A stretch of 64,000 bases of DNA from Chloroflexia bacterium (GCA_034436115.1 DAOTVY010000015.1:19276-83275); one strand, 5' to 3'. Shown: positions 14,562-57,111, counted from the stretch's first letter. Numbers and translations: made by a program. The notes: generated by a model from the letters alone, not told the origin.

Positions 14562-16343
14562 CTATGTACGGACGCGCCGCTTGCCAAAGGTCGGTTCGGC
14601 GGGCGGGATGGGGGGCATCTGCCAGGTTCCGGTGATCGGCACGGGTGTGTCGCGGTTGATGATCACGTCGATCAGGGTCGGGCGTCCCGACTTCAGGGCG
14701 TGTTCGAATGCCGGAGCAAAATCGCCGGGACGCTCGATGCGGATCCCCTCGGCGCCCATCGCCTCGGCCATCTTGGCAAAGTCCGGGTTCCACAGCTCGC
14801 CGGTCTTGACCTTCATGAAGCTCGTACCGATCTCCCGGCCATCCAGGTAGAAGCGCTGGAGGTCGCGAATGCAACCAATGGAGTAGTTGTTAAAGACTAC
14901 CCAGACGACCGGGAGGTCGTACTCCACGGCGGTAGCCACCGCGTGGGGCGTCATCATGAAGCCACCGTCGCTGCAGACGTTCACGCACGGGGATTCGGGC
15001 CGGGCTAGCTTGGCGCCCAGGACGCCGCAGACCCCGAAGCCCATCGCGGCAAACCCGCCGGGGCTGATATGGGTCAGCGGTCGCGGCGTGTCCCAATACT
15101 GCTCGACCCATGCCTGGTTATTGCCCACATCGGCCACCAGGATGGTATCCGGCGGGGCAATGCGCCGCATATCCATCAGGATGCGCCGCGGGTCGATCGG
15201 CACTTCTTCGTTCGTCGCGTAAGGCCGGATAAAGTTCTCCCAGGCGGTCTTGTATTCGTAGATCTCCTCCAACCACGCCTTGCTGTCGCGCTGGATCCCT
15301 TTTGCCTTGGCCATTTCCAACATCTGCGCCAGGAAAGCCTTGGCATCGGCCACGATCCCCAGTTCGACGGGGTAGTTGCGGCCGATCTCGCTCGGGTCGA
15401 TATCGACGTGGATGAGTTTGGTCGGGGGGATGTTGTAGATATAGCCCGGCAGCCAGGAGGCGCAATGGAGGTCGGAGAAACGGGCTCCGATGGCCAGGAT
15501 GACGTCCGCGTTGCGGGCTGCCTCCGCCGCGGGGTAGTGGCCCCAGCACCCAGCGACGCCCAGGTAGAGCGGATCGCCCTCGGCCATGGCCCCTTTGCCC
15601 ATGAGCGTCGTGTAGACCGGGATTTCGAGATAGGTCGCGAGCGCTTTCAGCTCCTCAGTCGCCCCAGAGACCATGACGCCTCCGCCTGCCAGGATCAGCG
15701 GGCGTGCGGCCTTGGCCAGGAGGTCCAGCGCCTTTTCCACCGCCTCGGGCGAAGCGGGCGTGCGCCAGTGCATGGGGCGGGACCACTGTTCCGGATCTGG
15801 GATCTCGACGTCGGCCTTATGGATGTAGAGGTCGTAGGGGATGTCGAAATGACAGGGGCCTGGCCGGCCGGTGCGCATCAGCTTGAAGGCCTTGGGGAGG
15901 TAGCGCACCAGGTCCTCGACCTTGCGGATTTGCCAGGAGTGCTTGACGATCGGCTTGAGCACCGAGGGGAAGTCGCCGGGGAAGTACCGGTACTCCTCCT
16001 GCAGGGCCCCGGTATCGAACTGATCCGTGGTGACCTGTCCGGTTACCACCAGGAATGCCGAAGAATCGTAGAAAGCGTTGGCCACAGCGATGGTCAGGTT
16101 CATCGGGCCGGGCCCGGTGGAGGCATACACGAGCAGCGGGACGCCGGTCAGGCGGAAGTAGACGTCGGCAATGAACCCCGCCGCCTGCTCCACGCGCGGC
16201 CAGATGACACGGATCTTGTCCTGGCGGTCGTAAATGCCGTCCAGCAGGCCGATGGCCCCATGACCGGCATAGCCGATGACGTAGGGCACCTTCTCTTTGA
16301 TCAGGTACTCAGCGATGATCTCGCAGCCCCGATACTCCGCCAT
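14562..16343 (-). CDS. Thiamine diphosphate-dependent enzyme, acetolactate synthase-like superfamily
   Basis: IGYAGHG, RVEQAAGF (catalytic Glu), STGPGPMN, ADVGNNQ, GGFAAMGFG, SDGGFMM...FNN; ATG 16343 behind GGAGGT. Confidence 0.9.
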   Translation of the reverse strand: MAEYRGCEIIAEYLIKEKVPYVIGYAGHGAIGLLDGIYDRQDKIRVIWPRVEQAAGFIADVYFRLTGVPLLVYASTGPGPMNLTIAVANAFYDSSAFLVVTGQVTTDQFDTGALQEEYRYFPGDFPSVLKPIVKHSWQIRKVEDLVRYLPKAFKLMRTGRPGPCHFDIPYDLYIHKADVEIPDPEQWSRPMHWRTPASPEAVEKALDLLAKAARPLILAGGGVMVSGATEELKALATYLEIPVYTTLMGKGAMAEGDPLYLGVAGCWGHYPAAEAARNADVILAIGARFSDLHCASWLPGYIYNIPPTKLIHVDIDPSEIGRNYPVELGIVADAKAFLAQMLEMAKAKGIQRDSKAWLEEIYEYKTAWENFIRPYATNEEVPIDPRRILMDMRRIAPPDTILVADVGNNQAWVEQYWDTPRPLTHISPGGFAAMGFGVCGVLGAKLARPESPCVNVCSDGGFMMTPHAVATAVEYDLPVVWVVFNNYSIGCIRDLQRFYLDGREIGTSFMKVKTGELWNPDFAKMAEAMGAEGIRIERPGDFAPAFEHALKSGRPTLIDVIINRDTPVPITGTWQMPPIPPAEPTFGKRRVRT

Positions 16344-16560
16344 GGCAGCGACCTCCTTACAGTGAAAAAATTCCTTCCGGCGTTCGTCGCCAGATCTGCA
16401 CGGGCAACCTTCGTCCTGTGGCTCGACCACCTCCTTTCATGGACTGCGGACCGCCCTGTGTCCGCGACATCCTGCCCGGAAACAGGCGGAGATCCCTTGC
16501 GTGATCCTCTCGCCCCACGGCCTTGGGAAGCTGAACACCCCACCACGCATTCCCCATCTT

Positions 16561-43423: not shown

Positions 43424-46303
43424 GTGAAAGCAGCCGGGGTGGTCGTACTCCTCGTCCTGCTGGGGGCGCTCGCGTTAGCCTGGGCAGCCGGTGATCTCGC
43501 GCCTCGTGCTCCAGCGGACACCCCTTGCGCCCCCCTGGAGCTTCCTACACCCCTTCCCAGCGACGAAGCCGCACTCCGGGCGGCGATGGAAGGGGCCCTC
43601 CGTGCTTGGGCAGCAGCCCATCCCCACAGCAAGCCCCTCCGCCTCGGCCTCGTCTGGGCAGAGGCGGACTGGGCCGCCGGGGAAGTGCACGTCGCTTTTC
43701 CCGACACGTATAGCAGCGAAGGGGCGCTGCTGTTGGCCGAAAGGGCGGCCGAAGGCTGGGAGGTACATTTCCCCGGGGAGCCGTCGTACCTAGCACTCCT
43801 GGAGCGTGGCCCTGCGCGCCACCTACCGCGCCCAGCGTTGGAGGCCCTGCGCGCACAGAGCGGGCCAGCCGTGGGGGACACGAGCGGCCTCTACTACCTC
43901 CCCTACTCCGCCGGTACCTCGGTGCTGGTCACCTGTGTCGATTGCTACCCCGGCCACTTTCCCAGCGTCGACCTGTATAGCTTGGGGGATCGCATCCTGC
44001 GCGCTGCCCGGGACGGGACGGTGGCTGCCTGGCGGGATGTGGGGGATTTCTGCTGCTGCCAGTCGGGCTGCGGCGTTTGCAACAGTTACCTCGTGTTGGA
44101 CCACGGGGATGGCGAATATTCCGCCTACCTCCACTTGGTTTCAGGGAGCATCCCCGAACCGCTCCGCCAGATCGGTGCCTTCGTACCACGCGCGACGGCC
44201 ATCGGCATCGAGGGCGATGTCGGCTATAGCTGCGGCAGCAACCGGCCGGAGGTGGGATGCGGCAGCTTTCTACCGACCCCGGGGCAGGGCTGCGGGCGCC
44301 ACGTGCACTTTGAGGTCCGCGATGCCCCGTACCCCTACGGCCAGCGCCTTCGACCGCGCTTTCAGGACGTTTACGAGCAGACAGAGCCACCCACCTACTA
44401 CCTGGAGGAAGGGCGGATTTATGTCTCGGGAAACCTTCCCCCCAGCCCAACCCCTCTCCCTACCCCAACACCGACCCCTGCGCCCACGCCGACCCCAGGG
44501 GCATGCAACCCGCCTGCCGGCAGCGAGGGGGTCTATCTCTTCAGCGAAGCGCGGTTCTGCGGGTATTTCCACCCGTACCTGGTTTCCGCCCCTGCGATCA
44601 CCACCCCATCTCCCCTGAATGAAGGCGTGTGGTCGATCTCCCTCTTCGGGCCCTATACCGCCACCCTCTTTACCGCGCCGGACTACCAGGGCATTCGGGA
44701 AACGTTCCTCGACGGCGACGAGGACCTTTCGGATAACCCCATCTCGACCGAGACCGCTTCCTTACGCGTGCAGCTGGCGGAATGCCCCGTGATCAGCCCA
44801 GGCCTCGTGCTCTATACCTCTTCCGGGTACAGCGGCGCCTGCCGGCGCTTCGGGGAAAGCGACCCGGACCTGGAAGACGATGGCTTGGCGGGGAGCGTGC
44901 GTTCGCTTCGGCTGGTCGGGCCTTATACCGTTACGCTCTACGCGGGCGCGGGGTATACCGGGCCGGCCGAGACGTTTGCCAGCGACGTCCCAGATCTCCT
45001 GGAGCATCCTCTCGGGCGCAACATCCGCTCCTTTCGCCTGGGCTCCCGCCTATGCAATCCTCAGGCCGAAGGGGTGACCGTATTCGCCTTGCCCAGCTAT
45101 GCCGGGGCCTGCCGGACGTTGGTTACCGCCACTGCGGACCTGTCCTCTACCTTGGGGATGATCCCTCGCTCGATCTGGCTGCAAGGCCCCTTTCACGCAG
45201 TCCAGTACGCGGCGCCCGGCTTTACCGGCACGCAGGAACTCCTGCTGGTGAGCGACCCAGACCTGACCGACAACCCGGCCTTTCCGGCGCGCTCGCTGCA
45301 GGTGGTGGGCGGTTCGTGCCTGCCGTGGCGTGAAGGGGTCACGCTCTTTGCGGGATCGGGGTTTAGCGGCGGCTGTCTCACCTTGCGCACAAGCGATCCA
45401 GACCTCTCCGCGAGCGGGTTGGCGGGACATGTGGGATCGATCCGGATCCGTGGACCATACCGGCTGACGCTTTACGCCCTTCCCGGGTTCGCGGGACCCG
45501 CGGAGCAGATCGACCGCTCGGACCCCGACCTTTCGGACAATCCGGTGGGCGTGCAGGCGGCATCCGTGCAACTGGAGCGGATCCCCTGCAACGCTGGTCA
45601 CGGCGGGGTCACTCTCTGGGCACAGCCCGGTTACGACGGCGTTTGCACCACGCTTCGCAGCGACGACGCCGATCTCGGGAACGATGGAATCGGCCGGGAG
45701 AACGCCTTCTCCTTGCGCATCATCGGTCCCTATAGCGTAACCCTGTATTCCGGCGTGGGCTTTACGGGAACACCGGCGGTTGCGCTGGGTGACCTCCCGG
45801 ACCTGGGCAACACCCCGTTCGCCGGTTCCGTCGCCTCCGCGCGCGTACGGCCACTCGGCGTGACACCGCGCCTATGGAACGACCTGCGCCCGTTTGCGCT
45901 CCCGCTTCAGGTTTCCACCCATCCGGCTTGGTATCTCCAGGAAACTGGATATACCTCCAGCAGCCCCGACGACCCCGTGTTGAGCTGCACGGGCAGCAGC
46001 GGGACCCGCACCCTTTGGTATCGGGTATCGGGGAACCAGAGCGCGGTGTTGCACGCGCAAGGCATGGGCCTTGCCGGTCTGGCCCTAGCCCTGTGGACGG
46101 AAGGGCCGGCCGGCCTGCGGGAACTCGCTTGTGGGTCGGGCGAAACGCCCACCCTGCAAGCCGTGATGCTCGCGGGAAGGCCCGTATGGCTCGAGGCCAG
46201 TATTGCTGGGCCTGGAAGCGGCACCCTCGCGCTCCAGGTGTGGCAGAGCCGCCCGTTCGCGATCTACCTGCCCCTGGTCGTACGCGGCCCATCGAGCCCC
46301 TGA
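43424..46303 (+). CDS. Secreted M23 peptidase with five beta/gamma-crystallin-like domains and a C-terminal YLPLV motif
   Basis: Signal peptide; GHFPSVD, LDHGDG..SAYLHL, HVHFEVR; PT-rich linker; ten repeats of G/Y-V-T-L-Y/F...Y/F-x-G...D-P-D-L...S-x-R; ends IYLPLVVRGPSSP. Confidence 0.85.
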   Translation: MKAAGVVVLLVLLGALALAWAAGDLAPRAPADTPCAPLELPTPLPSDEAALRAAMEGALRAWAAAHPHSKPLRLGLVWAEADWAAGEVHVAFPDTYSSEGALLLAERAAEGWEVHFPGEPSYLALLERGPARHLPRPALEALRAQSGPAVGDTSGLYYLPYSAGTSVLVTCVDCYPGHFPSVDLYSLGDRILRAARDGTVAAWRDVGDFCCCQSGCGVCNSYLVLDHGDGEYSAYLHLVSGSIPEPLRQIGAFVPRATAIGIEGDVGYSCGSNRPEVGCGSFLPTPGQGCGRHVHFEVRDAPYPYGQRLRPRFQDVYEQTEPPTYYLEEGRIYVSGNLPPSPTPLPTPTPTPAPTPTPGACNPPAGSEGVYLFSEARFCGYFHPYLVSAPAITTPSPLNEGVWSISLFGPYTATLFTAPDYQGIRETFLDGDEDLSDNPISTETASLRVQLAECPVISPGLVLYTSSGYSGACRRFGESDPDLEDDGLAGSVRSLRLVGPYTVTLYAGAGYTGPAETFASDVPDLLEHPLGRNIRSFRLGSRLCNPQAEGVTVFALPSYAGACRTLVTATADLSSTLGMIPRSIWLQGPFHAVQYAAPGFTGTQELLLVSDPDLTDNPAFPARSLQVVGGSCLPWREGVTLFAGSGFSGGCLTLRTSDPDLSASGLAGHVGSIRIRGPYRLTLYALPGFAGPAEQIDRSDPDLSDNPVGVQAASVQLERIPCNAGHGGVTLWAQPGYDGVCTTLRSDDADLGNDGIGRENAFSLRIIGPYSVTLYSGVGFTGTPAVALGDLPDLGNTPFAGSVASARVRPLGVTPRLWNDLRPFALPLQVSTHPAWYLQETGYTSSSPDDPVLSCTGSSGTRTLWYRVSGNQSAVLHAQGMGLAGLALALWTEGPAGLRELACGSGETPTLQAVMLAGRPVWLEASIAGPGSGTLALQVWQSRPFAIYLPLVVRGPSSP

Positions 46304-46511: not shown

Positions 46512-46540
46512 TTGACAGCGGGCAAAGCCTGTGATATCAT
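46512..46540 (+). promoter_or_regulatory. Promoter of tRNA-Asp
   Basis: TTGACA-17-TATCAT with extended TG. Confidence 0.85.
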
Positions 46541-46550
46541 ACGCGGTGCT

Positions 46551-46624
46551 GGGGCCGTGGTGTAGAGGCCTAACATGCAGCCCTGTCAAGGCTGAGATCG
46601 GGGGTTCGAATCCCCTCGGCCCCG
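46551..46624 (+). tRNA. tRNA-Asp (anticodon GTC)
   Basis: Acceptor GGGGCCG/CGGCCCC, anticodon arm CAGCC-CTGTCAA-GGCTG, T arm GGGGG-TTCGAAT-CCCCT; CCA not encoded. Confidence 0.97.
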
Positions 46625-46625
46625 C

Positions 46626-46657
46626 AAGGGCGGGCCTTTATGGCTCAGCCCTTTTTT
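46626..46657 (+). terminator. Terminator after tRNA-Asp, overlapping the citE stop
   Basis: AAGGGCGGGCC/GGCTCAGCCCTT hairpin followed by a T tract. Confidence 0.6.
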
Positions 46658-47522
46658 CTTCCTCCAGTTGCTCGGCCAGCGCCAGGAGCCGCCGCGCGCG
46701 CTCGACGATCGGCCGATCGATCATCTTGCCGTCGAGCGCGATTGCCCCGCGTCCCTCGCGCTCGGCCTCCTCAAACGCCGCCAACACGCGACGCGCCTCC
46801 GCGACCTCCGCTTCGCTTGGGGAAAGCAGGCGGTTCACCACCGGGACCTGTCGAGGATGGATCACCTGCTTGGCCCGATACCCCAGCTGCCGCCCGACGG
46901 TCGTGTTGTGCACCAGGCCTGCCTCGTCGTCGATCCGCGGATAGACCATGTCGATCGGCTGCACCCCAGCGGCGCGGGCCGCAAGGACCACCAGTTGCCG
47001 TGCCACCAGCAACTCCGTGGCTTCCTCGGTACGCATCATCCCGGCATCGAGCGAGAGATCCTCCCCGCCGAAGATCAGCCCGACCACCCGCGGATCCGCT
47101 GAGGCGATGGCGTAAGCATTCAGTACGCCCAGCGCGGTCTCGATCGTCGCCAGGATCCCCAGCGGCTCGGCGATCCCGCGTTCCTTCTCTGCCTCGGCCA
47201 GCCACGCGATCACCGTCCGCAACCCCTCGGCATCCTGCACCTTGGGAAGGCAAAGCCCGGCCAAGCCCGGCTGCACGACGGCCGCGATGTCCTCCTGGGC
47301 AAGTCCGCTGCCGTGGGCGTTCACGCGGACAAAAACGGTCCGCGCACCCTCGAGGATCTGTGGCAGCATCTCGCGCACCAGGCTGCGCGCGGCCGCCTTT
47401 TCGGGAAGGGGGACCGAGTCCTCCAGGTCAAGGATTAGCGCATCCGCACCGAGGCTGGGTGCCTTGGCGAGCATGTTAGGCCGGTTTCCCGGGACATACA
47501 GGAGCGTTCGCAGCAGGCGCAT
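46638..47522 (-). CDS. citE: CitE-family (citryl-/malyl-/citramalyl-CoA) lyase
   Basis: RTLLYVPGNR, DALILDLEDSV, FVRVN, LPKV, TIETALG, FGGED, IHPRQV, GKMIDRP; ATG 47522. Confidence 0.92.
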   Translation of the reverse strand: MRLLRTLLYVPGNRPNMLAKAPSLGADALILDLEDSVPLPEKAAARSLVREMLPQILEGARTVFVRVNAHGSGLAQEDIAAVVQPGLAGLCLPKVQDAEGLRTVIAWLAEAEKERGIAEPLGILATIETALGVLNAYAIASADPRVVGLIFGGEDLSLDAGMMRTEEATELLVARQLVVLAARAAGVQPIDMVYPRIDDEAGLVHNTTVGRQLGYRAKQVIHPRQVPVVNRLLSPSEAEVAEARRVLAAFEEAEREGRGAIALDGKMIDRPIVERARRLLALAEQLEEEKRAEP

Positions 47523-47526
47523 GGGG

Positions 47527-47745
47527 CTACTCCTCGTAGAGCTTGTGCAGGCGCAGCGCGCCCGATGGGCACTGCTCCAGGCACAAACCACACAGCGTGC
47601 ACTCGTCCTCGTTCGCCGGATCGGTCAGGAGTTCGTTTCCCTCCAGACGGAAAACGTCCACCGGGCAAACGCGCACGCAAGTTCCACAAGCGTCTGGCCG
47701 GGGGCAGCGCGCGTGGTCCACTTCCAGGCGGATGAACAGGCCCAC
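47527..47745 (-). CDS. 2x[4Fe-4S] ferredoxin
   Basis: GTG 47745: CPRPDACGTCVRVCP and CTLCGLCLEQCP; 72 aa. Confidence 0.9.
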   Translation of the reverse strand: MGLFIRLEVDHARCPRPDACGTCVRVCPVDVFRLEGNELLTDPANEDECTLCGLCLEQCPSGALRLHKLYEE

Positions 47746-47746
47746 T

Positions 47747-48661
47747 TCAGACCTCCTTGGCTGCCCGATCGAGGGCCTCGCGTACGAGCGCGGGCACCTC
47801 CGAGAGGCGCTGAGCCACGAGCACCCCGGCCGCGCGCAGAGCACGCTCCTTGCTCTCCACCCGGCCACGGTCCCCTTCCACGAGCACCGCGGCGTGCCCG
47901 AAGCGTTGTCCGGGCATCCGGTCCACAAATCGGCCAGCCAGGAAGGCCACGACCGGCAACCGAGGACGGTGGGTAGCCACATACTCGGCCAGCGCTTCTT
48001 CCTGCACACCGCCCGGTTCTCCGAACACAACCACGGCTCTTGTGTCGGGGTCGCCCTCCAAGAGGGGCATCAGGTCGACGAAGGTGGTCCCGACGAGTGG
48101 GTCTCCTCCGATGCTCACGCAGATGCTCTGGCCAAGGCCCGACTGCGTGAGGAGGCTCGCCAGTTCGGTGGTCATCCCGCCGCTTCGGGAAAGCACTGCC
48201 ACGGGGCCCGGGGTATAAGCGCGTCGTACATCTTGCGCCGGGCCCCCGACCATGCCGATCTTGACCTTGCCCGGAAGGAGGATTCCCAAGCTGTTGGGGC
48301 CGATGATCCGGGCACCTCGGTGCCGCGCCCAGGCGATGACCTCGGCAACATCTCGCCGGGGAATGCGCTCCGTGACGATGACCAGCAGCCTCAGCCCGTG
48401 TTCCAGCGCCTCCAGCGCCGCTTCCCGAACGGCCGCCGGCGGGACGCTGATTACGGATGCCTCAGCCGGGTGCTCCCGAAGCGCCTGCGCCAGGCTATCG
48501 TACACCGGTACGCCGTAGACCGTGGTACCGCCCTTACCCGGGGTTACCCCGGCAACCACCTGGGACCCATAGTCCAGCATGTGCCGGGTAAAGGTCACGG
48601 CTTCGCGCCCGGTGATCCCTTGGACGACGATACGGGTGGATGGATCGGCCAGAACGGTCAT
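47747..48661 (-). CDS. ADP-forming acid--CoA ligase alpha subunit (SucD/CcsB family)
   Basis: IVVQGITGRE, VAGVTPGKGG, IIGPNSLG, LSRSGGMTTE, SIGGDP, phospho-His FGHAA; ATG 48661 overlaps the beta-subunit stop. Confidence 0.9.
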   Translation of the reverse strand: MTVLADPSTRIVVQGITGREAVTFTRHMLDYGSQVVAGVTPGKGGTTVYGVPVYDSLAQALREHPAEASVISVPPAAVREAALEALEHGLRLLVIVTERIPRRDVAEVIAWARHRGARIIGPNSLGILLPGKVKIGMVGGPAQDVRRAYTPGPVAVLSRSGGMTTELASLLTQSGLGQSICVSIGGDPLVGTTFVDLMPLLEGDPDTRAVVVFGEPGGVQEEALAEYVATHRPRLPVVAFLAGRFVDRMPGQRFGHAAVLVEGDRGRVESKERALRAAGVLVAQRLSEVPALVREALDRAAKEV

Positions 48662-49860
48662 GCCGAACGACTCCTTTCCACCGCCAGGCGTGCCGCCTCG
48701 TCGATGGAAACGCTGCGGTCGCAGAAAGCGATCCCATAGCGGCGCAGGATCTTGGTGCCCTCGTCTTCCCACGCGCCCGGGATGCGAAAGACGGCGATCG
48801 TTTCGCTCGGATCGAGGCCCAGATCCACGATTCCGGCGATGACGCCGCGTGCCACCAAGTCAACCCGCGTGTTGCTGACCACGTTCATGATGACGGCCAG
48901 GCGACGCACGCCAGGTTTGGAGAGGATGTGGCGCGTCAGCGCACGGATCTTGCGCACGCTCGGGTTGCCTCCGATCTCGCAGTAGTTCGCCGGCCGGCCC
49001 CCATGGGCCAGGATCGCGTCGAACACTGTCAGGCTCGCACCGCCTCCTCCGATGAGCAAGCCCAGGTTGCCATCGAACTCGACCACCCGCCCGGCCACAC
49101 CCCGGTGGTCCATCGCATCGATCTCCGCCGCCGCCTGCTCGAAGGGGGTCGGAGGGCGGACAGCCGTGGGCCGCGGGACAATGCCATAGACCTTGCTGAG
49201 CTCCGGATGGCGCCCGAGCGCTTCATCCTCCAGCTCGATGTGGGCGTCGAGCGCAAGGAGCTTCCCCTCGCCCATCCGTCGCAGCGGGTTGACTTCTGCT
49301 ACGGTGGCGTCGAAGCGATAGAACAGCTCGTAGAGCCGGCGAACTGCGTCCCCGAAAGCGAGCAGGTCCGGGCCCTGCAGCGACAGGGCGGCTGCGACCT
49401 CCCGGCCCTTGTAGCCGCCGAACGGCCAAGCCATGTCGACCGGGATACGCACCAGGCCCGTGGGTGCCTCCGCGGCTGCCTGCTCGACGTCCACGCCACC
49501 CTCCAGACTGGCCAGGATGACGGGCGACCGGAGGTACGAGTCGTAGGTCACCGCGAGGAACCACTCCGGCCCGTCCGGCACCGCGGCCTCGACCAGCAGC
49601 TCCTCCACGCGATAACCCAGGAGCTCCGCGCCGAGGAGCTCCGCCGCGACCTGCCCCGCCTCCGTAGCCGTGTGGGCGGAGCGCACACCGCCGGCTTTCA
49701 TGCGCCCACCGCGAGGCACCTGGATTTTGAGCACCACCGGCAAACCCAGGCGCTCCGACGCTTCCTGGGCTGCCTCGGGTGTGCGCACACGCACGCCTTC
49801 AGGGACAGGGATCCCTTGCTCCTTCAACAGCACTTTCGCTTCCCATTCACACAACCGCAT
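48658..49860 (-). CDS. ADP-forming acid--CoA ligase beta subunit (SucC/CcsA family, citryl-CoA-synthetase-like)
   Basis: MRLCEWEAKVLL, KIQVPRGGRMKAGGV, EVNPL, ALDA; substrate loop IGGGGASL, ANYCEIGGNP, ILSKPGV, NTRVD; ATG 49860. Confidence 0.88.
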   Translation of the reverse strand: MRLCEWEAKVLLKEQGIPVPEGVRVRTPEAAQEASERLGLPVVLKIQVPRGGRMKAGGVRSAHTATEAGQVAAELLGAELLGYRVEELLVEAAVPDGPEWFLAVTYDSYLRSPVILASLEGGVDVEQAAAEAPTGLVRIPVDMAWPFGGYKGREVAAALSLQGPDLLAFGDAVRRLYELFYRFDATVAEVNPLRRMGEGKLLALDAHIELEDEALGRHPELSKVYGIVPRPTAVRPPTPFEQAAAEIDAMDHRGVAGRVVEFDGNLGLLIGGGGASLTVFDAILAHGGRPANYCEIGGNPSVRKIRALTRHILSKPGVRRLAVIMNVVSNTRVDLVARGVIAGIVDLGLDPSETIAVFRIPGAWEDEGTKILRRYGIAFCDRSVSIDEAARLAVERSRSA

Positions 49861-49862
49861 CT

Positions 49863-50579
49863 TCACGCTCCGAGGCTTCCAGACTTGCCCTGGACAGCCG
49901 GACGATCCCCCAGCAGCTCGCGCCCCCGCGCCACAAGGCGGGTCAGCGGGATCTGCTTGGGGCAGCTGGCCTCCCACCGCTGGGCAGCCTCTGGGGAAAG
50001 GAGGCCTGCCTGCTCCAGGACCCACAGGCGCACCGGACCGAGGAGATCCCTGGGATCCAGAGCAAAGCGGACGCCCTGGGCCAGCGCCGCCGGATTGGGC
50101 GCCGTGCTGCCACCGGCACCGGCCTGGCATGCCCCGCACAGGATGCACAACGCCCCATCCATGGCCGCTTCCACCGTCGTTTGCTCCATCGTTCCGCCAT
50201 AGTCGGGACGGCGCAGAAGCCAGGGGAGAAAAGCGCGCAGCGATTCGAAAAACGGGTCGATGTCCACCACCAGGTCTCGCAGGACAGGAAAGCCCGGAAG
50301 AGGGCCGATGGAAAGGGAGCCCGAAGGATCGAGGACTTCCGGCACCCGGGTCATACAGGCGAGGCGGGGATGGCCGTTGATGGCGACGGCGCAGGAACCG
50401 CAGATGCCGCTGCGACAGGATCGACGAAAGGCCAGGGTGGCGTCGTGCAGGTCCCGGACCTCGAGCAAGAGATCGAGCACGGTCGAGGTCGGGGAGATCG
50501 TCAACCGGAAGCATTGCCAGTACGGCTCGCGGTCCCGGGTGGGGTCAAAGCGTTGTACCAGGAGGTCGAGCGGGGTCAT
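49863..50579 (-). CDS. sdhB: Succinate dehydrogenase/fumarate reductase iron-sulfur subunit, atypical
   Basis: FRRSCRSGICGSCA...LAC ([2Fe-2S]), VLRDLVVD, CILCGAC, SCPKQIP; [3Fe-4S] cysteines absent; ATG 50579. Confidence 0.88.
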   Translation of the reverse strand: MTPLDLLVQRFDPTRDREPYWQCFRLTISPTSTVLDLLLEVRDLHDATLAFRRSCRSGICGSCAVAINGHPRLACMTRVPEVLDPSGSLSIGPLPGFPVLRDLVVDIDPFFESLRAFLPWLLRRPDYGGTMEQTTVEAAMDGALCILCGACQAGAGGSTAPNPAALAQGVRFALDPRDLLGPVRLWVLEQAGLLSPEAAQRWEASCPKQIPLTRLVARGRELLGDRPAVQGKSGSLGA

Positions 50580-50580
50580 C

Positions 50581-52260
50581 TCAGTACTTCCTCCCTGCCG
50601 GCAGGAAACGGGTGATCGACACCGGTCGTTTTTCCAGCACGGGGCCAGCGGGCGAACGACGCGCGATGGTGTGGACCAGCCAGTGCTCGTCGGCGCGCTC
50701 CGGCCAGTCGGTGCGACAGTGGGCCCCGCGGCTCTCGCAACGGTAGAGCGCGCTCGCGGCAATGACTCGGGCAATCTCCAGCAGATGCCCGCACTCGAGG
50801 TACTCTACCACGGCATAGTTGAAACGGGGAGGCCCTGGATCGAGGCGGATTCCCTGGAAGGTTTGCTGGAGGCGTTCGATCTCCTGGCAGGCGGATTCCA
50901 ATCCAGAGGCATCCCGGAAAATCCCCACCTGGTCGGTCATCAGCTGGTTCAGCGCCTTGCGCACGGCGGCGACTGGCTCCCCACGGGCGCCGGAGCAGAT
51001 GCGCCGCAATTCCGACTCCCAGCGGTCGACCGCCCCCTGGATGCTCTCCGCACTCCCCCAAGGCCGTTCGCGGGCAATTTCGGCCGCCCGGCCCCCTGCA
51101 CGCTTGCCAAAGACCCAGGCATCGAGCAGCGAGTTTCCTCCGAGCCGGTTGGCGCCATGGACGCTGACATTGGCGCACTCCCCGGCGGCAAGCAGGCCCG
51201 GGATCTCCGTCTCTCCCCAGGTGTTGCAACGGATCCCGCCCATACTATAGTGCGCGGCCGGCTCGACCGGCAGGGGATGGTGCGCGATGTCAATGCCGGC
51301 GTAAGTGAGCGCCAGCTGCCGTACCTGAGGAAGACGGGCATCGATCTGATCCGCACCCAGATGCGTGAGGTCGAGGGCGACGTAGCCTTCCCCCAACCCA
51401 CGCCCTTCCAGGATCTCGCGGGCGATCGCCCGCGAGACAACATCCCGGGGGGCGAGTTCCATCGCCTCAGGCGCATAGCGCGCCATGAAGCGCTCCCCAT
51501 TGCGGTTCCGAAGGTAGCCTCCCTCTCCCCGGGCCGCCTCGGAGATCAGGATGTTCTTACCGTATAGGCTTGTCGGATGGAACTGCACGAACTCCATGTC
51601 CGCCAGGGGCGCCCCGGCGCGGTAGGCGATGGCCACCCCATCGCCGGTGCAGGCATGGGCGTTGGTCGTCTTGGCATAGACCCGACCATAACCGCCTGTC
51701 GCGAGCACAACTGCTTTGGCGCGGAACCCGTCCAAACGGCCGTTCGCCAGATCCAGGACGACCACACCTTGACAGCCCCGGTCGTCCACCACGAGATCGA
51801 GCAGATGTTGCTCGGGGTAAACGCGTACGCCCCGGCAAAGCAGCTGCTGGTAGAGGCTATGAAGCGCCAGGTGCCCGGTGTAGTCGGCCGCAAAGCAGGT
51901 ACGCGGGAAGCCGGCACCACCGAGGGAGCGCTGGGCGATCCGGCCATCCGGCGTGCGGGAGAAGAGCACGCCCATCTCCTCCAGCTCGGCGATCGCCGCA
52001 GGCCCTTCCTGGCAGAGGATCTCAATCGCTTCCTGATCTCCCAGGTAATCGCTTCCTTTCACCGTGTCCAGGATATGGCGCTCGATGCTGTCGTCCGCCC
52101 CCAACGCGGCGTTGATCCCGCCCTGGGCGGCGCCGCTGTGGGAACGGGTGGGATAGAGCTTGGAGACGACGCCGACGTCCGCGCCGGCACGCAGTGCCTC
52201 CAGTGCTGCCCGCAGGCCGGCCAACCCGGCACCGATGATCAGCACCTCGTGGTGATGCAT
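50581..52260 (-). CDS. sdhA: Succinate dehydrogenase/fumarate reductase flavoprotein subunit
   Basis: [22 protein letters not shown] (covalent-FAD His), [46 protein letters not shown]. Confidence 0.93.
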
Positions 52261-52427: not shown

Positions 52428-53213
52428 CTACTCGTAGTACTCCGGCGCGTGCTTCAGCTTCGGCCAGGAATCGGGGTCGTGGCTGGTAATCACCTTCACC
52501 CCGTAGACCCGGCGCAGGTTCCGGATCCGCTTGACCGACTTGACCACATCCGGCGGGCTGTAGACCAACCCCGGCAGGACATCCTCGTTCAGGATCTCCT
52601 CGGTGTAGATCAGGTCGCCGGTCAGGAGCATCGGGCCGCTCTTCTCGAGGTTCACCAGGAGCGACTGGTGGCCCGGAGTATGGCCCGGGGTAAAGAGGAT
52701 CTTGATCTTCCCGTCGCCGAAGACGTCGTACTCGTCCTCCTGGAAGCCCTCGAGCAGGTACCAGTTCAGGTAAGGCTTGTCAAAGTCGGCGCGGATGTAA
52801 GCCCCCCTCTGGTAAAAGTCCGGCACGTAGGCGTACTGCAGCTCGGCCCGCTGCACAAAGTAGATGGCGTTCGGGAACGCACCGCAGCCGCCGGCGTGGT
52901 CCAAATGCAGATGGGAGAAGATGACGTGGGTGATGTCCTCCGGCTTGACCCCGATCTTGGCGAGCTGGTTAACCACATACTCGTCTTCCCGCATCACGGG
53001 GTCGTAGGCCGCGACTACCGCCGCGCCCCAGTGCTTGATCTTGTCGCGGGCAACTTCCAGCGCATTGCCCGTGTCGAAGAGCACCTTGCCCTTTTCGTGC
53101 TCGATGAGATAGAAGGGCACCGGGACGTCGAACGGCACGCCGACTCCGCGGCCCATGGTGAAGAGGTGTTTCTGGCTCTTGAGGATCCCGCACTGGAACA
53201 TGTAGAGCTTCAT
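52428..53213 (-). CDS. Lactonase of the AiiA/AttM(BlcC) metallo-beta-lactamase family
   Basis: VLFDTG, SHLHLDHAGG (HxHxDH), TPGHTPGHQS, LLTGDLIY (AiiA-type Asp and Tyr), VITSHDP; ATG 53213 behind AGGAG. Confidence 0.88.
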   Translation of the reverse strand: MKLYMFQCGILKSQKHLFTMGRGVGVPFDVPVPFYLIEHEKGKVLFDTGNALEVARDKIKHWGAAVVAAYDPVMREDEYVVNQLAKIGVKPEDITHVIFSHLHLDHAGGCGAFPNAIYFVQRAELQYAYVPDFYQRGAYIRADFDKPYLNWYLLEGFQEDEYDVFGDGKIKILFTPGHTPGHQSLLVNLEKSGPMLLTGDLIYTEEILNEDVLPGLVYSPPDVVKSVKRIRNLRRVYGVKVITSHDPDSWPKLKHAPEYYE

Positions 53214-53306
53214 CGCACTCCTCCTTCTCGCATCCGCCGGGTCTTCCCCGGGGCAACCGGGAAACTGCCACCGGGTTGCCACCCCATTGTCAGCCTCCAG
53301 ACCTCC

Positions 53307-53798
53307 TTACGCCTTCTTGGGCGCGAGCCACGCGGGGATCATGACCGACACGTAGCCGAGCAGGATACCGACAAAGAGCCCGATCAGCGTGTAGAGGATG
53401 TTCTGGAAGGAGAAGAAATTGTCGGTCTTGAACTGGCCGAAGGTGAACGCGAAGAAGGCGGCGAAAGCACAGAAGGCAGCACTGGCCAGTTCCAGAGGCT
53501 TCCAGTTCATGAGGAGCACGAGCACCAGGGCGCAGATCCCCACGAGGATCGAGATGCCTACGAAGCCAAGTTCGCCTCCGAGCTTGAGCCCGTAGAGCGC
53601 CACGTGCCCGAGAAGCACACCGAGGAGCATGGGGAAGCCGGCCTTGAGGATCGCCGCGGCGTTGCTGCCCGCGACGAAGAAGAAGGCCCACCCGATAAAG
53701 CCCGCCCACGTGGGGAGCTTCAGTTTGATGGACACGTAAGTCCACAGGGCGGCCAGGATACCGATGCTGATGGACAGCGCCACGTACTTGAGGCGCAT
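53307..53798 (-). CDS. DUF1097-like membrane protein
   Basis: 163 aa, five to six TM helices; ALSISIGILAALW, WAGFIGWAFFF, LIGLFVGILLGYVS. Confidence 0.7.
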   Translation of the reverse strand: MRLKYVALSISIGILAALWTYVSIKLKLPTWAGFIGWAFFFVAGSNAAAILKAGFPMLLGVLLGHVALYGLKLGGELGFVGISILVGICALVLVLLMNWKPLELASAAFCAFAAFFAFTFGQFKTDNFFSFQNILYTLIGLFVGILLGYVSVMIPAWLAPKKA

Positions 53799-53822
53799 CT
53801 CTCCTCCTCCTTGCGCTGAGAA

Positions 53823-55106
53823 CTACCAGAGCACCATCGACTCGCGGAAGATCCGGGCCAGGTCCTCCTTCGTCACCGGGCGCGGGCAGCCAACCAGCAA
53901 ACGCTGCTGTTTCCAGCCGCCTTCTACCAGGCCAGGGATATCGTCCTCCGTATATCCCAACGCCGCAAGGCCGTTCGGGCATCCGATGTCCCGCATCAGC
54001 TGGATCAGCGCCTCGGGTAGCTTCATCGCGGCCTCCATCGGCGAAAGCCCGGAGATGTTGGCTCCAAGCAGCTCGGCGATGCGGGCGTGCTTCTCCGGGT
54101 TCGTCGGAGCCGTGAAGCGGAACGCCGCGGGCGCGGTCAGCACGACGGACAGCCCGTGCGGAACCAGGGCTTCCTCTACGGGGTACTCGCTCGGCTTCCA
54201 CTCACGGATCATGCCCGCGATCGGGTAGCCCAGGGCGTGCGGGATGTGAACCCCTGCGTTCCCGAAGCCGATGCCCGCAAAGGTCGCTGCCATAGCCATG
54301 TAGCTGCGCGCCTCGAGGTCATTGCCATTGTAGCAGGCCCGGCGCAGGTACTTCCCGACCCACTCGATCGCCTTCTCGCTCCAAAGGTCCGCGATCGGGT
54401 TCGACCCCACATAGGCCGGCCGCAAGCTTGGATCCTCTGGTTTCGGCCGCGTGTTGTAGGGTTTGCTCGTGAACGACTCGGCAGCGTGGGTCAGCACATC
54501 CAGCCCGGTAAAGGCCGTGACCTGAGGCGATTGCGTGATCGCGTTCAGCGGGTCGACGATGGCCATTGTCGGGCGGATGTTCACGTGCGAGATGCCCGTT
54601 TTCACCTTCAGCTGGAGGAGGTCCAACACGATCACCGGTGTCGTTTCGCTGCCGGTGCCGGTGGTTGTGGGAAGCGCAAAGTGGGGCTTTAGCGGACCGG
54701 GAACGAGCTTTCCCTGGCCGATCGGTTTGTTGATATAATCGAAAAGATCGGCGGGGTAGGTGTTGAAGAGGTTCATCGCCTTGGCGGTATCGATCGTGCT
54801 CCCGCCGCCCAGGGAGACGAAGGCGTCGTAGACCTCGTCCCCGACCGCCTGGATCGCCGCGCGGAAGGAGACGTCTGTGGGCTCGATGTGCACCTCATCG
54901 TAGATGCGCAGCTGGATCCCCTCGCGCTCGATGATCTGCTTCACGCGGTCGATCAGCCCATACTGCCAGAGGTTCTTATCGGCCACGAGCAGCACTTTCT
55001 TGGCGCCGAGGATCCGCAGTTCGTAGCCCAGTTCCTCGGTAGCCCCGATCCCAAACTTGAGCTTGCCCATGGAGAGAGGGATGACGGTTTCTAGCTCGAC
55101 GGACAT
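53823..55106 (-). CDS. Hydroxyacid-oxoacid transhydrogenase (ADHFE1/HOT-type Fe-alcohol dehydrogenase)
   Basis: KFGIGATEELGY, EPTDVSF, GGGSTIDTAKA, PTTTGTGSETT, GLDVLTHAAES, RPAYVGSNPIAD, GNAGVHIPHALGYPIAG, VPHGLSV, QQRLL. Confidence 0.88.
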   Translation of the reverse strand: MSVELETVIPLSMGKLKFGIGATEELGYELRILGAKKVLLVADKNLWQYGLIDRVKQIIEREGIQLRIYDEVHIEPTDVSFRAAIQAVGDEVYDAFVSLGGGSTIDTAKAMNLFNTYPADLFDYINKPIGQGKLVPGPLKPHFALPTTTGTGSETTPVIVLDLLQLKVKTGISHVNIRPTMAIVDPLNAITQSPQVTAFTGLDVLTHAAESFTSKPYNTRPKPEDPSLRPAYVGSNPIADLWSEKAIEWVGKYLRRACYNGNDLEARSYMAMAATFAGIGFGNAGVHIPHALGYPIAGMIREWKPSEYPVEEALVPHGLSVVLTAPAAFRFTAPTNPEKHARIAELLGANISGLSPMEAAMKLPEALIQLMRDIGCPNGLAALGYTEDDIPGLVEGGWKQQRLLVGCPRPVTKEDLARIFRESMVLW

Positions 55107-55231
55107 CGCTGCACCTCCTGACTGGAGCTTATATCCGCGTGCGATGCCCCAACGGCACCGCCCCGAGCTTGCCGGGCTCCTGAACCATCGGGCACCTGCC
55201 TCCTTCCGGCTCCTCAGCCCTGAAACTCAGG

Positions 55232-55292
55232 GCACCTATCGATCACCGCAGACACTCGTGCCACGCCGATTGCCGCGACGCACCTATCGATC
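55232..55292. repeat. 13-bp direct repeat upstream of the transhydrogenase gene
   Basis: GCACCTATCGATC at 55232-55244 and 55280-55292 (48-bp period). Confidence 0.9.
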
Positions 55293-55365
55293 CATTCTCC
55301 CTTGGGGCTCCCTGGAGGCATCCACCAGGGTCTGCCCGGCGGCCATACCTGCAAAGGGATATAGG

Positions 55366-57111
55366 TTAGGACGATGGCCTCTCCCAGCCACGCCGGTCAT
55401 AGTACTCGCGGACCATTTTCTCCAGTTCCTCGGGGGTCAAGCGCTCGCCGCTGGGCTGGATCGGTTCACGCAAGAGGCGCTCCGGGAGCGTGTCGTCGGC
55501 CGGAACCATGCCCTCACGCAGGTTGTAGGATCGGATCAGGTTGGCGATGCGCGCCGAAAGGGCCTGCAACCCAGCCTTGTCGAGCTCCAACCCCGTCAAG
55601 CCCCGGATGATGCGGGGCAGGTCGTCCCAGCCGATCATATCCCGGTAAAAGCGGCAGAAGATCAGCGTATCAAAGACCGTGTGGCGGTCTTCAAAGTCGA
55701 GCACCAAGTCCGCCTTGCCCTCAGCCGTCGTCCGATCGACCCAACCGGCCAGCTCGGCCTTGTACACGGTAGCCCGCAGATGACAGGCACCGCGATCCGA
55801 GATCGCATAGGCCAGGCCCATGCCTTTGAGCCCACGGGGGTCATACCCAGCCGGCTCGAGCCCCTTGACGTGGATCGCCAGTTCCTCCAGCCCCAGCTGC
55901 CGCGCGGCCGAACGCACGCCTCCGGCAAAGATTTCCCCTATGCCCTCGCGCGCGGCGACCTTCCGCAGCAACTCGGCGATCCCGTCCACATCTCCATAAT
56001 CCAGCCCGAGGTCGAGGACACCCCGACGACAAGCCTCGATTGCCAGGCCCGCGACGTTGCCCCCGGTGATCGTGTCCAGCCCCAGGCGGTCGCACAAGTC
56101 GTTCAGGTAGAGGATTTCGGCGAGGTCGTCCACCCCGCACAGGCCGCCGAACGCGTAGATGGTCTCGTATTCCGGGCCCTCGACCGTCAGCCCGGCGTGC
56201 CGACCGTCCGGAACCGTAACCAGCTTGCCACAGGCAAAGAAGCAGCGGTAGCAGGCCTTGGGACGAGGCTGGAAACGCTCGACCAGTGCATCGCCGCTGA
56301 TCTGCGCCCAGTGGGGAACCGTGCCCGCAGACCAGTAGTAGCTGGGGAAAGCACCGGCGCGGTTCGTGAGCGCCACCACCATCGGTGTCCCGAACTTCCG
56401 GTAGTTGGCCGCGCCGGCGTCCGTCTTGCCCCGTTCCCGCAGTTCGCGGTCGTAGGCGGCGATGTCCTCAGGGTCGAAAAGCTGGCACTCTGCCCGGCCG
56501 TGGAAGACGATGCCCTTGACCTTCTTCGAGCCGAGCACGGCCCCCATACCGACGCGCCCGGCCTGCCGGCCGCGGTCGTTTCCCACCAGGGCAAAGCGCA
56601 CCAGGCGCTCGCCGGCGGGCCCGATGACCATCGCCTTCGCGCCGGGGATCCCCACATCCTTCTCCAGTGCCTCCTCCGCCGCATAGGCGTCCAACCCCCA
56701 GAATGGCCGCGCATCGTGAAAGGTTACCCCAGCGTCCGAGATCTCCAGATAGATGGGGTCGCTCGATGCCCCCCGGATGACGATCGCGTCGTAACCCGTC
56801 GCCTTGATCTGGGGAGCAATGTGGCCGCCAGAAGCCGACTCGCCAAAGATGCCCGTCTGCGGGGATTTGCTGATCAGGATGTAGCGGCTTGCCGGAGCCA
56901 GGACCGTGCCGGTGGCAGGACCGGTGGTGACGATGAGCGGGTTTTCGGGGGAAAGGGGATCCACTCCACGAGGGGCATACTGGGAAAGGAGATACGCACC
57001 GAGGCCCTTCCCACCCAGGTAGTCTCTCAGCACCTCCTCCGCCACGGCCTCCGCCCGAAAGTTCCGTTCCGACACGTCCACGTGCAGGATCCGTCCGTGG
57101 AAGCCCAGCAT
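55366..57111 (-). CDS. Aldehyde:ferredoxin oxidoreductase (tungstopterin AOR family)
   Basis: GGKGLG, KSPQTG, ESASGG, IGPAGE, GMGAVLGSKKVKG, CYRCFFAC, EGPEYET, GLDTI, RGACHL; ATG 57111 behind GGAGG. Confidence 0.93.
   Translation of the reverse strand: MLGFHGRILHVDVSERNFRAEAVAEEVLRDYLGGKGLGAYLLSQYAPRGVDPLSPENPLIVTTGPATGTVLAPASRYILISKSPQTGIFGESASGGHIAPQIKATGYDAIVIRGASSDPIYLEISDAGVTFHDARPFWGLDAYAAEEALEKDVGIPGAKAMVIGPAGERLVRFALVGNDRGRQAGRVGMGAVLGSKKVKGIVFHGRAECQLFDPEDIAAYDRELRERGKTDAGAANYRKFGTPMVVALTNRAGAFPSYYWSAGTVPHWAQISGDALVERFQPRPKACYRCFFACGKLVTVPDGRHAGLTVEGPEYETIYAFGGLCGVDDLAEILYLNDLCDRLGLDTITGGNVAGLAIEACRRGVLDLGLDYGDVDGIAELLRKVAAREGIGEIFAGGVRSAARQLGLEELAIHVKGLEPAGYDPRGLKGMGLAYAISDRGACHLRATVYKAELAGWVDRTTAEGKADLVLDFEDRHTVFDTLIFCRFYRDMIGWDDLPRIIRGLTGLELDKAGLQALSARIANLIRSYNLREGMVPADDTLPERLLREPIQPSGERLTPEELEKMVREYYDRRGWERPSS

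Follow-up and report, generated by a model that had tools for sequence, protein, structure and literature searches.

ATP-citrate lyase (ACL) and the couple of citryl-CoA synthetase (CCS, subunits CcsA and CcsB) and citryl-CoA lyase (Ccl) are diagnostic enzymes of the reductive tricarboxylic acid (TCA) cycle; how they arose is a matter of debate. The underlying logic, a thiokinase that works together with a CitE- or Ccl-type lyase, is known from MtkAB/Mcl and from CcsAB/Ccl, and in citrate lyase it is CitE that cleaves the citryl thioester. Here we analyse a stretch of 64,000 nucleotides from a Chloroflexia bacterium (GCA_034436115.1 DAOTVY010000015.1:19276-83275; the window in the following, G+C ≈65%), which contains an operon for a two-subunit acid-CoA ligase, a ferredoxin, a CitE-like lyase and a succinate dehydrogenase-like pair. 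New are the lineage to which the ligase belongs, its ferredoxin and the swapping of lyases among its relatives; literature searches yielded no published description of this family, of a pairing of CCS with CitE or of a CitE-like citryl-CoA lyase in autotrophs. We tentatively propose that the acid is a hydroxy-dicarboxylate, (S)-citramalate or (S)-malate, which the ligase and a CitE/CLYBL-type lyase would convert to acetyl-CoA and a 2-oxo acid.

The six genes follow each other head to tail with intergenic gaps of 1, 2, −4 (an ATGA overlap of beta and alpha), 1 and 4 nt. Since all spacings are 4 nt or less or overlapping, the sdhA-like, sdhB-like, beta, alpha, ferredoxin and CitE-like genes form one operon:

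50581..52260, minus strand: sdhA/frdA-like flavoprotein, 559 amino acids (aa), gene 1 of the operon
49863..50579, minus strand: sdhB-like iron-sulfur subunit, 238 aa, gene 2
48658..49860, minus strand: ligase beta (large, ATP-grasp) subunit, 400 aa, ATG at 49860
47747..48661, minus strand: ligase alpha (CoA-binding, phosphohistidine) subunit, 304 aa
47527..47745, minus strand: 2x[4Fe-4S] ferredoxin, 72 aa, GTG start, eight cysteines
46638..47522, minus strand: CitE/CLYBL-type acyl-CoA lyase, 294 aa, gene 6 and the last
46551-46625, plus strand: tRNA-Asp (GTC), convergent with the end of the CitE-like gene, closing the operon

A first-pass annotation, made from the sequence of the window, had assigned 46638-49860 to the ligase, ferredoxin and CitE-like genes, which is right to the base for these four minus-strand genes. 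It had also mentioned an adjacent fumarate reductase-like enzyme, which is present as the sdhA- and sdhB-like genes directly upstream of beta, with gaps of 1-2 nt. No riboswitch and no clear promoter or terminator bounding the operon was found, and the only Rfam match in the window is the tRNA-Asp.

Domains and motifs show the ligase to be a predicted ADP-forming acid-CoA ligase of the phosphohistidine type. In Pfam, beta matches ATP-grasp_2 and, with 30.7 bits where 26.8 are required, Citrate_bind (PF16114), and leaves Ligase_CoA unmatched; alpha matches CoA_binding and Ligase_CoA and retains the catalytic histidine within FGHAA. All motifs cited in the first-pass annotation were found again, LLIGGGGASLTVFD, ANYCEIGGNP, ILSKPGV and NTRVD in beta and SRSGGMTTE in alpha. 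The equivalent positions read NGAGLAM/NGAGLVM, ANFLD(V/I)GGGA and NIFGGI(V/T)R(C/A)D in SucC of E. coli and Thermus and SRSGTLTYE in E. coli SucD; the succinate-site motifs of SucC and SucD (NGAGLAM, NIFGGIVRCD and SRSGTL) are replaced in the window by GGGGASL, NVVSNTRVD and SRSGGM. Signatures of CcsA and CcsB are present in both subunits, namely GGGG(S/A), IGGNP, ILSKPG, NTRxD and a DHRG insertion in beta and SGG with two insertions in alpha. These two insertions are common only to CcsB and the family of relatives described below and are absent from SucD and MtkB. The motif SRSGGM is invariant in alpha of the family, where CcsB has SKSGGL, SucD SRSGTL and MtkB GRSGTL. Hydrogenobacter CcsA (6hxq_B) carries FGGGGST, IGGNP, ILSKPG and NNTRID, and Chlorobium AclB (6hxj_A) carries AGGGAS, ANYAEYSGDP, ICRLPN and ANFTDV. 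The marker ILSKPG...NTRID, which had been ascribed to CcsA and AclB alike, fits CcsA but not AclB.

Profile scores are in agreement with this placement. Beta remains below the NCBIfam cut-offs for SucC (243 vs 370 bits, NF001913) and MtkA (177 vs 604 bits, NF010647), and alpha below those for SucD (288 vs 336 bits, NF004230, and 293 vs 353 bits). Against the PDB, full-length beta gives near-equal scores for Thermus succinyl-CoA synthetase (SCS; 178 bits, the top match) and Hydrogenobacter CcsA 6hxq_B (161 bits, ≈31% identity). The C-terminal, acid-binding half of beta matches 6hxq_B with 94 bits, any SucC with at most 61 bits and AclB with 49 bits. An AlphaFold model of beta (pLDDT 88.6) retrieves SCS beta chains first in Foldseek, at TMq values of 0.56-0.58 for SCS and CCS alike; Foldseek does not separate the two, and the fold therefore gives no help on specificity. 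NCBIfam scores, shared insertions and deletions and trees bear out the assignment of both subunits to the CCS/ACL type and not to SucCD or MtkAB.

For the phylogeny we used distance trees throughout. The beta tree (neighbour-joining, 48 sequences, 399 columns, 100 bootstraps) had as references CcsA from Aquificae and from Leptospirillum/Nitrospirota, SucC of E. coli and Thermus and serine-cycle MtkA from two plasmids; AclB entered a second tree as the C-terminal domain of the Chlorobium protein, taken from the PDB alignment. In the first tree the family was monophyletic at 99 and CcsA at 100, and both together stood apart from SucC, MtkA and an Azospirillum protein at 99. With AclB added, the group of family, CcsA and AclB was supported by 98, CcsA with AclB by 87 and the family with CcsA alone by 0, and support for monophyly of the family was 93-99 over the two trees. 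MtkA clusters with SucC, separate from the family, at 99/100, and MtkA/MtkB side with SucC/SucD. As judged from these trees the family is the sister group of CcsA + AclB and a member of neither lineage. Membership in the citryl-CoA synthetase clade does not hold, since the family lies outside a CcsA that is monophyletic at 100; the phylogenetic check that had been recommended, run here with distance trees, did not group beta with canonical SucC or MtkA. The Azospirillum protein is part of a divergent SucCD-like pair (annotated 'ATP-grasp domain protein' and 'CoA-binding protein') on Azospirillum brasilense plasmid p3 (L092, 5001-7030), which is flanked by genes for an aldehyde dehydrogenase and a molybdopterin oxidoreductase, adjoins a TctABC transporter and branches outside SucC, MtkA and the ligase family of the window.

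The family is large. A search of a 5.8-billion-protein collection returned thousands of relatives with 48-85% identity from Chloroflexota, NC10, Tectomicrobia, Desulfobacterales, Nitrospinae and others, which at present are labelled 'acetate--CoA ligase family', 'ATP-grasp domain-containing' or 'succinyl-CoA synthetase beta / citryl-CoA synthetase large subunit'. Pattern scans located the family in at least 577 species genomes and at least 562 metagenome contigs, and it is common in aerobic soil Actinomycetota (Solirubrobacterales). The closest locus, in a Chloroflexia metagenome-assembled genome (L006, 85% identical), has the same order sdhA-sdhB-beta-alpha-ferredoxin-citE and the same upstream genes for an aldehyde:ferredoxin oxidoreductase and an Fe-alcohol dehydrogenase. 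At the closest metagenomic relatives (L096, L110, L125 and L163) mostly the trio of beta, alpha and ferredoxin alone is visible.

The genes next to the ligase were clustered and counted at 81 non-redundant genome loci, to which 80 metagenome loci were added; counts by subfamily cover 164 loci. Genes were called by frame composition, trained for each locus on beta and alpha. The 81 genome loci contained beta in 81, alpha in 75, the ferredoxin in 70 and, within 10 kb, a lyase of the CitE superfamily in 58 cases. The tie between the ligase and such a lyase, which had been proposed from the window, is thus a recurrent one, found in differing gene orders in at least six lineages and, over the 164 loci, in several phyla. 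Two residues of the glycine-rich acid-site loop divide the family into subfamily A (IGGGGAS, 41 loci including the window) and subfamily B (IGAGGGS, 123 loci). Subfamily A is accompanied by a CitE-type lyase at 21 loci, a short citrate-synthase-like Ccl at two, sdhA at seven and MmgE/PrpD-like genes at nine, and MaoC or Mch hydratase, phosphoenolpyruvate carboxykinase and mutase genes were found at none of the 41. Subfamily B is accompanied by RipC/Mcl-like lyases at 81 loci and by hydratases at 79 (RipB/Ich-like MaoC at 63, mesaconyl-CoA-hydratase-like at 16), and Pfam and NCBIfam models identify phosphoenolpyruvate carboxykinase at 42 and a methylmalonyl-CoA-mutase-like protein at 16. To judge from these itaconate-type hydratase and lyase genes, the context of subfamily B is plainly one of C5-dicarboxylates.

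Among individual loci, Ccl-type lyases adjoin the ligase at L004/L005 and L028; the Ccl of L004 passes the NCBIfam citryl-CoA lyase models, and Iso_dh and Ldh genes are near. At L011 there are class I fumarase alpha and beta (a hydratase of the fumarase/mesaconase type), SdhCAB and a TRAP-type DctPQ transporter, and at L038 a GlcD/GlcF-like dehydrogenase. L028, a subfamily-A locus of an Aerophobetes metagenome-assembled genome (3885-7920), continues from beta, alpha, ferredoxin and the Ccl-like gene into a 290-aa gene, glutamate mutase S and E and methylaspartate ammonia-lyase. Glutamate mutase and methylaspartate ammonia-lyase constitute the route from glutamate to mesaconate, and the cluster may stand for a modified form of glutamate fermentation via methylaspartate.

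The ferredoxin was listed in the first-pass annotation as a gene that follows alpha, which is correct, but its presence is not incidental: as the third gene it is a hallmark of the ligase family as a whole. It follows directly after alpha, or after the lyase, at ≈120 of the 164 loci (about three quarters), and most of the other loci are truncated contigs; at the canonical ccs loci examined a dedicated ferredoxin gene is absent. The window protein matches Fer4 in Pfam and generic polyferredoxin domains in the PDB. Its cysteine pattern covaries with the subfamily of the ligase. The full set of eight cysteines, for two clusters, is present in 14 of 15 subfamily-A proteins, and all 55 subfamily-B proteins examined have C27, C49, C52 and C55 only, enough for one cluster. 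The motifs FI, CPVxIF, NxDEC and KLY outside the cysteines are kept in both. No ferredoxin fusion was found among over-long homologues, of which P0006 is a chimeric assembly. The ferredoxin could be a bound subunit of the ligase, a redox sensor or an electron carrier. Literature searches returned no report of an SCS/ACL-type ligase with an Fe-S subunit or a ferredoxin, and we know of no precedent for an Fe-S subunit in the SCS/ACL superfamily.

The lyase covers the complete HpcH_HpaI profile (PF03328, positions 1-221 of 221, 194 bits) and stays under the cut-offs of the citE model TIGR01588 (258 vs 443 bits) and of the RipC model NF038242 (167 vs 375 bits). Human CLYBL is the top match in the PDB (180 bits), and identities are 41% to E. 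coli CitE, 37% to CLYBL and 34% to Mcl. In a tree it falls into the CitE/CLYBL group (94), within which supports of 11-45 do not separate CitE, CLYBL and PA0883-type proteins. An identity as Mcl malyl-CoA lyase is not borne out by its position outside the Mcl clade. The other citrate lyase genes citD, citF, citC, citX and citG are absent from the window by tblastn.

The SdhA-like flavoprotein passes TIGR01812 (731 vs 567 bits), has 45% identity with its E. coli counterpart SdhA and keeps the catalytic residues and those for covalent FAD attachment (TRSHS with the FAD histidine, HPT, RGEGG and HYSMGG). In Pfam the SdhB-like subunit matches only Fer2_3, the 2Fe-2S domain. Aligned with E. coli SdhB, it has kept the cysteines of the 2Fe-2S and 4Fe-4S clusters, and those of the [3Fe-4S] cluster (C159, C206 and C212) are all replaced. 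The same pattern is found in 120 of the 120 closest SdhB homologues (P0241-P0360), which occur with SdhA and without an anchor, two of them beside MmgE/PrpD-like genes. The window pair thus looks like a representative of a widespread class of soluble two-subunit succinate dehydrogenases/fumarate reductases. No SdhC or SdhD membrane anchor was matched in the window, which together with the replaced [3Fe-4S] ligands speaks against a quinone-linked complex II (SdhABCD/FrdABCD). The intact canonical succinate site makes a role as tricarballylate dehydrogenase less likely. The Sdh linked to the family at Desulfobacterales loci is of the ordinary, anchored kind. MmgE/PrpD-family genes recur beside anchorless SdhAB (L176, 3861-7693; L177, 5314-7687 and from 13596 onward) and beside subfamily-A ligases, which suggests that the same pathway network includes a (de)hydration, decarboxylation or isomerisation. 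A role in the 2-methylcitrate cycle is unlikely, with ≈50 bits for the PrpD-like neighbours against a PrpD cut-off of 950.

These components can be combined into a mechanistic model. The ligase would use ATP and CoA to convert a 2-substituted malate into its CoA thioester, and the CitE/CLYBL-type lyase would cleave this ester to yield acetyl-CoA together with a 2-oxo acid, pyruvate from (S)-citramalate or glyoxylate from (S)-malate, with citrate being a less likely substrate. In the reverse direction ligase and lyase would store the energy of the thioester as ATP. The anchorless SdhAB without a [3Fe-4S] cluster would interconvert succinate or methylsuccinate and fumarate or mesaconate, the gene for the fumarase or mesaconase step would lie in another part of the genome, and the ferredoxin would serve as a soluble electron partner, as a third subunit permanently attached to the ligase, or as both. 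The operon would encode a nearly consecutive pathway, in which Sdh takes step 1, the ligase step 3 and the lyase step 4. As 2-substituted malates, citrate, citramalate and malate would all undergo the same chemistry. The hedge 'citrate (or malate/citramalate)' of the first-pass annotation was apt.

The choice among these acids depends in part on the acid-binding site. In human ATP-citrate lyase (ACLY), citrate is contacted by residues 280-281, 307-310, 343-348, 379, 626 and 664-665 (PMC11365397), and the R379A variant serves as a citrate-binding mutant (PMC10593830). A pair of arginines is kept in CcsA (VRRNG) and AclB (VRRGG), where our family has the invariant FRIPG, SucC VRLEG and MtkA VRLAG; the whole family thus has isoleucine at the position of the second arginine of CcsA, AclB and ACLY, and SucC and MtkA have leucine. 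Subfamily A has no basic residue beyond those of the C5-linked subfamily B. The isoleucine at the presumed R379 position, the methylaspartate genes of L028, the fumarase and DctPQ genes of L011, CLYBL as the top solved relative of the lyase and the intact site of SdhA point to a dicarboxylate, and citramalate and malate jointly would have roughly an even chance of being the acid. Citrate, which had been put forward as the substrate, is disfavoured by the isoleucine in the whole family and by the contexts of the relatives, which favour C4/C5 dicarboxylates at least as strongly.

Several observations weigh against a dicarboxylate, and most of them also speak for the doubtful but most serious rival, in which the ligase is a citryl-CoA synthetase with a CitE-type lyase in the place of Ccl. 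The enzymes would then cleave citrate to acetyl-CoA and oxaloacetate at the expense of ATP, as in the reductive TCA cycle, or in reverse would form an ATP-conserving citrate synthase, with SdhAB as a ferredoxin-linked fumarate reductase. The nearest characterised relatives of the ligase, CcsA and AclB, activate citrate, and as their sister group the family has motifs, insertions and deletions in common with them in both subunits and a Citrate_bind match above the Pfam cut-off. The GGGAS motif and SRSGGM of alpha are ACL-like, and Asn330 and Thr331 match N346 and T348 of ACLY. CitE is the lyase of citrate lyase, and E. coli CitE is as close to the window lyase as CLYBL is. A short citrate-synthase-like protein stands beside two subfamily-A members (the Ccl-type lyases of L004/L005 and L028), one of which passes the NCBIfam 'citryl-CoA lyase' cut-offs and has the Iso_dh and Ldh genes near it. 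MmgE/PrpD-family neighbours are typical of tricarboxylate metabolism, and a Leptospirillum-type cluster joins ccsAB and ccl with fumarate reductase in the order ccsA-ccsB-acn-ccl...frdBA. No fumarase or mesaconase was found in the window. The substrate assignment itself rests on few residues and on the neighbouring genes. Many of the counted loci come from the same orders (Solirubrobacterales and Desulfobacterales), so that the counts overstate independence, and the second arginine of VRR is taken to be R379 by a provisional numbering that combines the ACLY sequence with alignments to CcsA and AclB. Against citrate, the equivalent of R379 is isoleucine family-wide, the family is not nested within CcsA, the Ccl-linked L028 lies in a methylaspartate (C5) cluster and the lyase reaches only 258 of the 443 bits of the CitE equivalog model.

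The wider claim that the operon carries signature steps of a reductive TCA cycle is not supported by the window or by the distribution of the family. The family is abundant in aerobic soil Actinomycetota of the Solirubrobacterales, where such a cycle is implausible. In the 64-kb window tblastn gave no match to aconitase, Ccl, citDFCXG or a second sucCD, and Pfam detected no domains like those of 2-oxoglutarate:ferredoxin oxidoreductase (OGOR), pyruvate:ferredoxin oxidoreductase (POR) or isocitrate dehydrogenase in the ten otherwise unidentified open reading frames scanned. That the family could be a third, ferredoxin-containing ATP-dependent citrate-cleaving system, older than the split of CcsA and AclB, is unlikely in our view; if it were so, Chloroflexota, NC10, Desulfobacterales and others would have a cryptic citrate cleavage, as for a reductive TCA cycle, or ATP-conserving citrate synthesis that has been missed by marker-gene surveys.

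Two other readings are considerably less probable. The ligase might activate itaconate, mesaconate or citraconate, all of them unsaturated C5 acids, as seems to be the case for subfamily B, with the hydratase encoded elsewhere and cleavage by the CitE-type lyase. Subfamily B, which differs from A at few positions only, pairs RipB/Ich- or mesaconyl-CoA-hydratase-like genes with RipC/Mcl-like lyases, but a MaoC/Mch hydratase gene occurs at none of the 41 subfamily-A loci and the changes from GGGGAS to GAGGGS in the acid-binding loop suggest a different acid, so that we consider this improbable. More improbable still is a divergent ordinary succinyl-CoA synthetase beside a succinate dehydrogenase, with the CitE-like protein and the ferredoxin as mere passengers. 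Clustering of sdh and suc genes is common, for instance in E. coli, and both the full-length PDB search and Foldseek put SCS first; yet the subunits score below the SucC and SucD cut-offs, the succinate-site motifs are replaced, the trees exclude the family from SucC and MtkA at 98-99, and the association with lyase and ferredoxin is conserved in different phyla. We retain citramalate or malate as the tentative substrate.

If the acid is citramalate or malate, many uncultured lineages would have an ATP-coupled breakdown of C4/C5 dicarboxylates or an ATP-yielding condensation of glyoxylate or pyruvate; if it is citrate, the family would represent the third citrate-cleaving system considered above. 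A sister family with an Fe-S gene, which swaps lyases of the CitE, Ccl and Mcl/RipC types, provides an outgroup for the question of how citrate cleavage arose from dicarboxylate thiokinases. The labels that the family now bears can produce false calls of a reductive TCA cycle in metagenome surveys.

The surroundings of the operon were inspected as well. Upstream, on the minus strand (52428-57111), there are genes for a metallo-beta-lactamase-fold protein, a DUF1097 membrane protein, an Fe-alcohol dehydrogenase and an aldehyde:ferredoxin oxidoreductase; the last two are syntenic in the Chloroflexia relative L006 (2806-6068) and constitute a second ferredoxin-using module adjoining the operon. 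At a distance of ≈30 kb from the operon, 14562-16430 (minus strand) encodes a 622-aa thiamine-diphosphate enzyme of the acetolactate-synthase/glyoxylate-carboligase type, which might matter if glyoxylate or pyruvate is the product. On the other side, the 5' side of the tRNA-Asp (46512-46625, plus strand) has a match to a sigma-70 promoter in 11 of 12 positions (TTGACA, 17 nt, TATCAT, with a TG extension), and 43424-46303 (plus strand) encodes a 959-aa predicted secreted protein with a Pro/Thr linker and ≈8 tandem repeats of a ≈45-residue module (…GY.G….F…DPDL.DN…S.R…).

Among the described systems, CcsAB and Ccl of Hydrogenobacter thermophilus (PDB 6hxq) and of Leptospirillum/Nitrospirota resemble the window in that a two-subunit ADP-forming ligase is combined with a separate lyase. 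Beta has GGGG(A/S), IGGNP, ILSKPG, NTR(I/V)D and the DHRG insertion and alpha SGG and the two insertions in both, and the Leptospirillum-type ccs cluster likewise includes a fumarate reductase. They differ in that CcsA has VRRNG where the window has FRIPG, in the position of the window ligase in a sister clade, in the lyase, which is citrate-synthase-like in Ccl and of the CitE type in the window, and in the ferredoxin gene, which canonical ccs loci lack and the window ligase has as a dedicated one. With AclBA of Chlorobium (PDB 6hxj) and human ACLY the window ligase has GGGAS, ANY.E and the Asn/Thr of the citrate loop in common and falls into the same superclade (98/100). Unlike these enzymes, it lacks the fused citrate-synthase-homology (CCL) module, has isoleucine for R379 and is accompanied by a separate CitE-type lyase.

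MtkAB and Mcl of the serine cycle, present in the Paracoccus and Aminobacter plasmid clusters L090 and L091, follow the same logic of an SCS-like ligase for a 2-hydroxy-dicarboxylate and a lyase of the CitE superfamily that sets free acetyl-CoA and a 2-oxo acid, but MtkAB has the SGT motif, lacks the CCS-type insertions and deletions and groups with SucC/SucD, and the window lyase lies outside the Mcl clade. The itaconate routes of RipABC and of mammalian SCS-AUH-CLYBL are related through the lyase, with CLYBL (PDB 5vxc) as the top solved relative, and subfamily-B loci resemble Rip operons in which the ligase has taken the place of the CoA transferase; the window operon, in contrast, is without a hydratase, and its lyase scores 167 bits where the RipC model demands 375. 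Citrate lyase CitDEF (E. coli citCDEFXG) has the CitE fold in common with the window at 41% identity, but carries the thioester on the prosthetic group of an acyl carrier protein, whereas the window encodes an ATP-dependent ligase acting on free CoA and none of citD/F/C/X/G. Finally, anchorless two-subunit SdhAB clusters exist in genomes, for example SdhAB-1 and SdhAB-2 of Syntrophobacter fumaroxidans (PMC5947623). Like these, the window pair consists of a flavoprotein and an Fe-S subunit without an anchor; unlike these, it is part of an operon with a ligase, a ferredoxin and a lyase.

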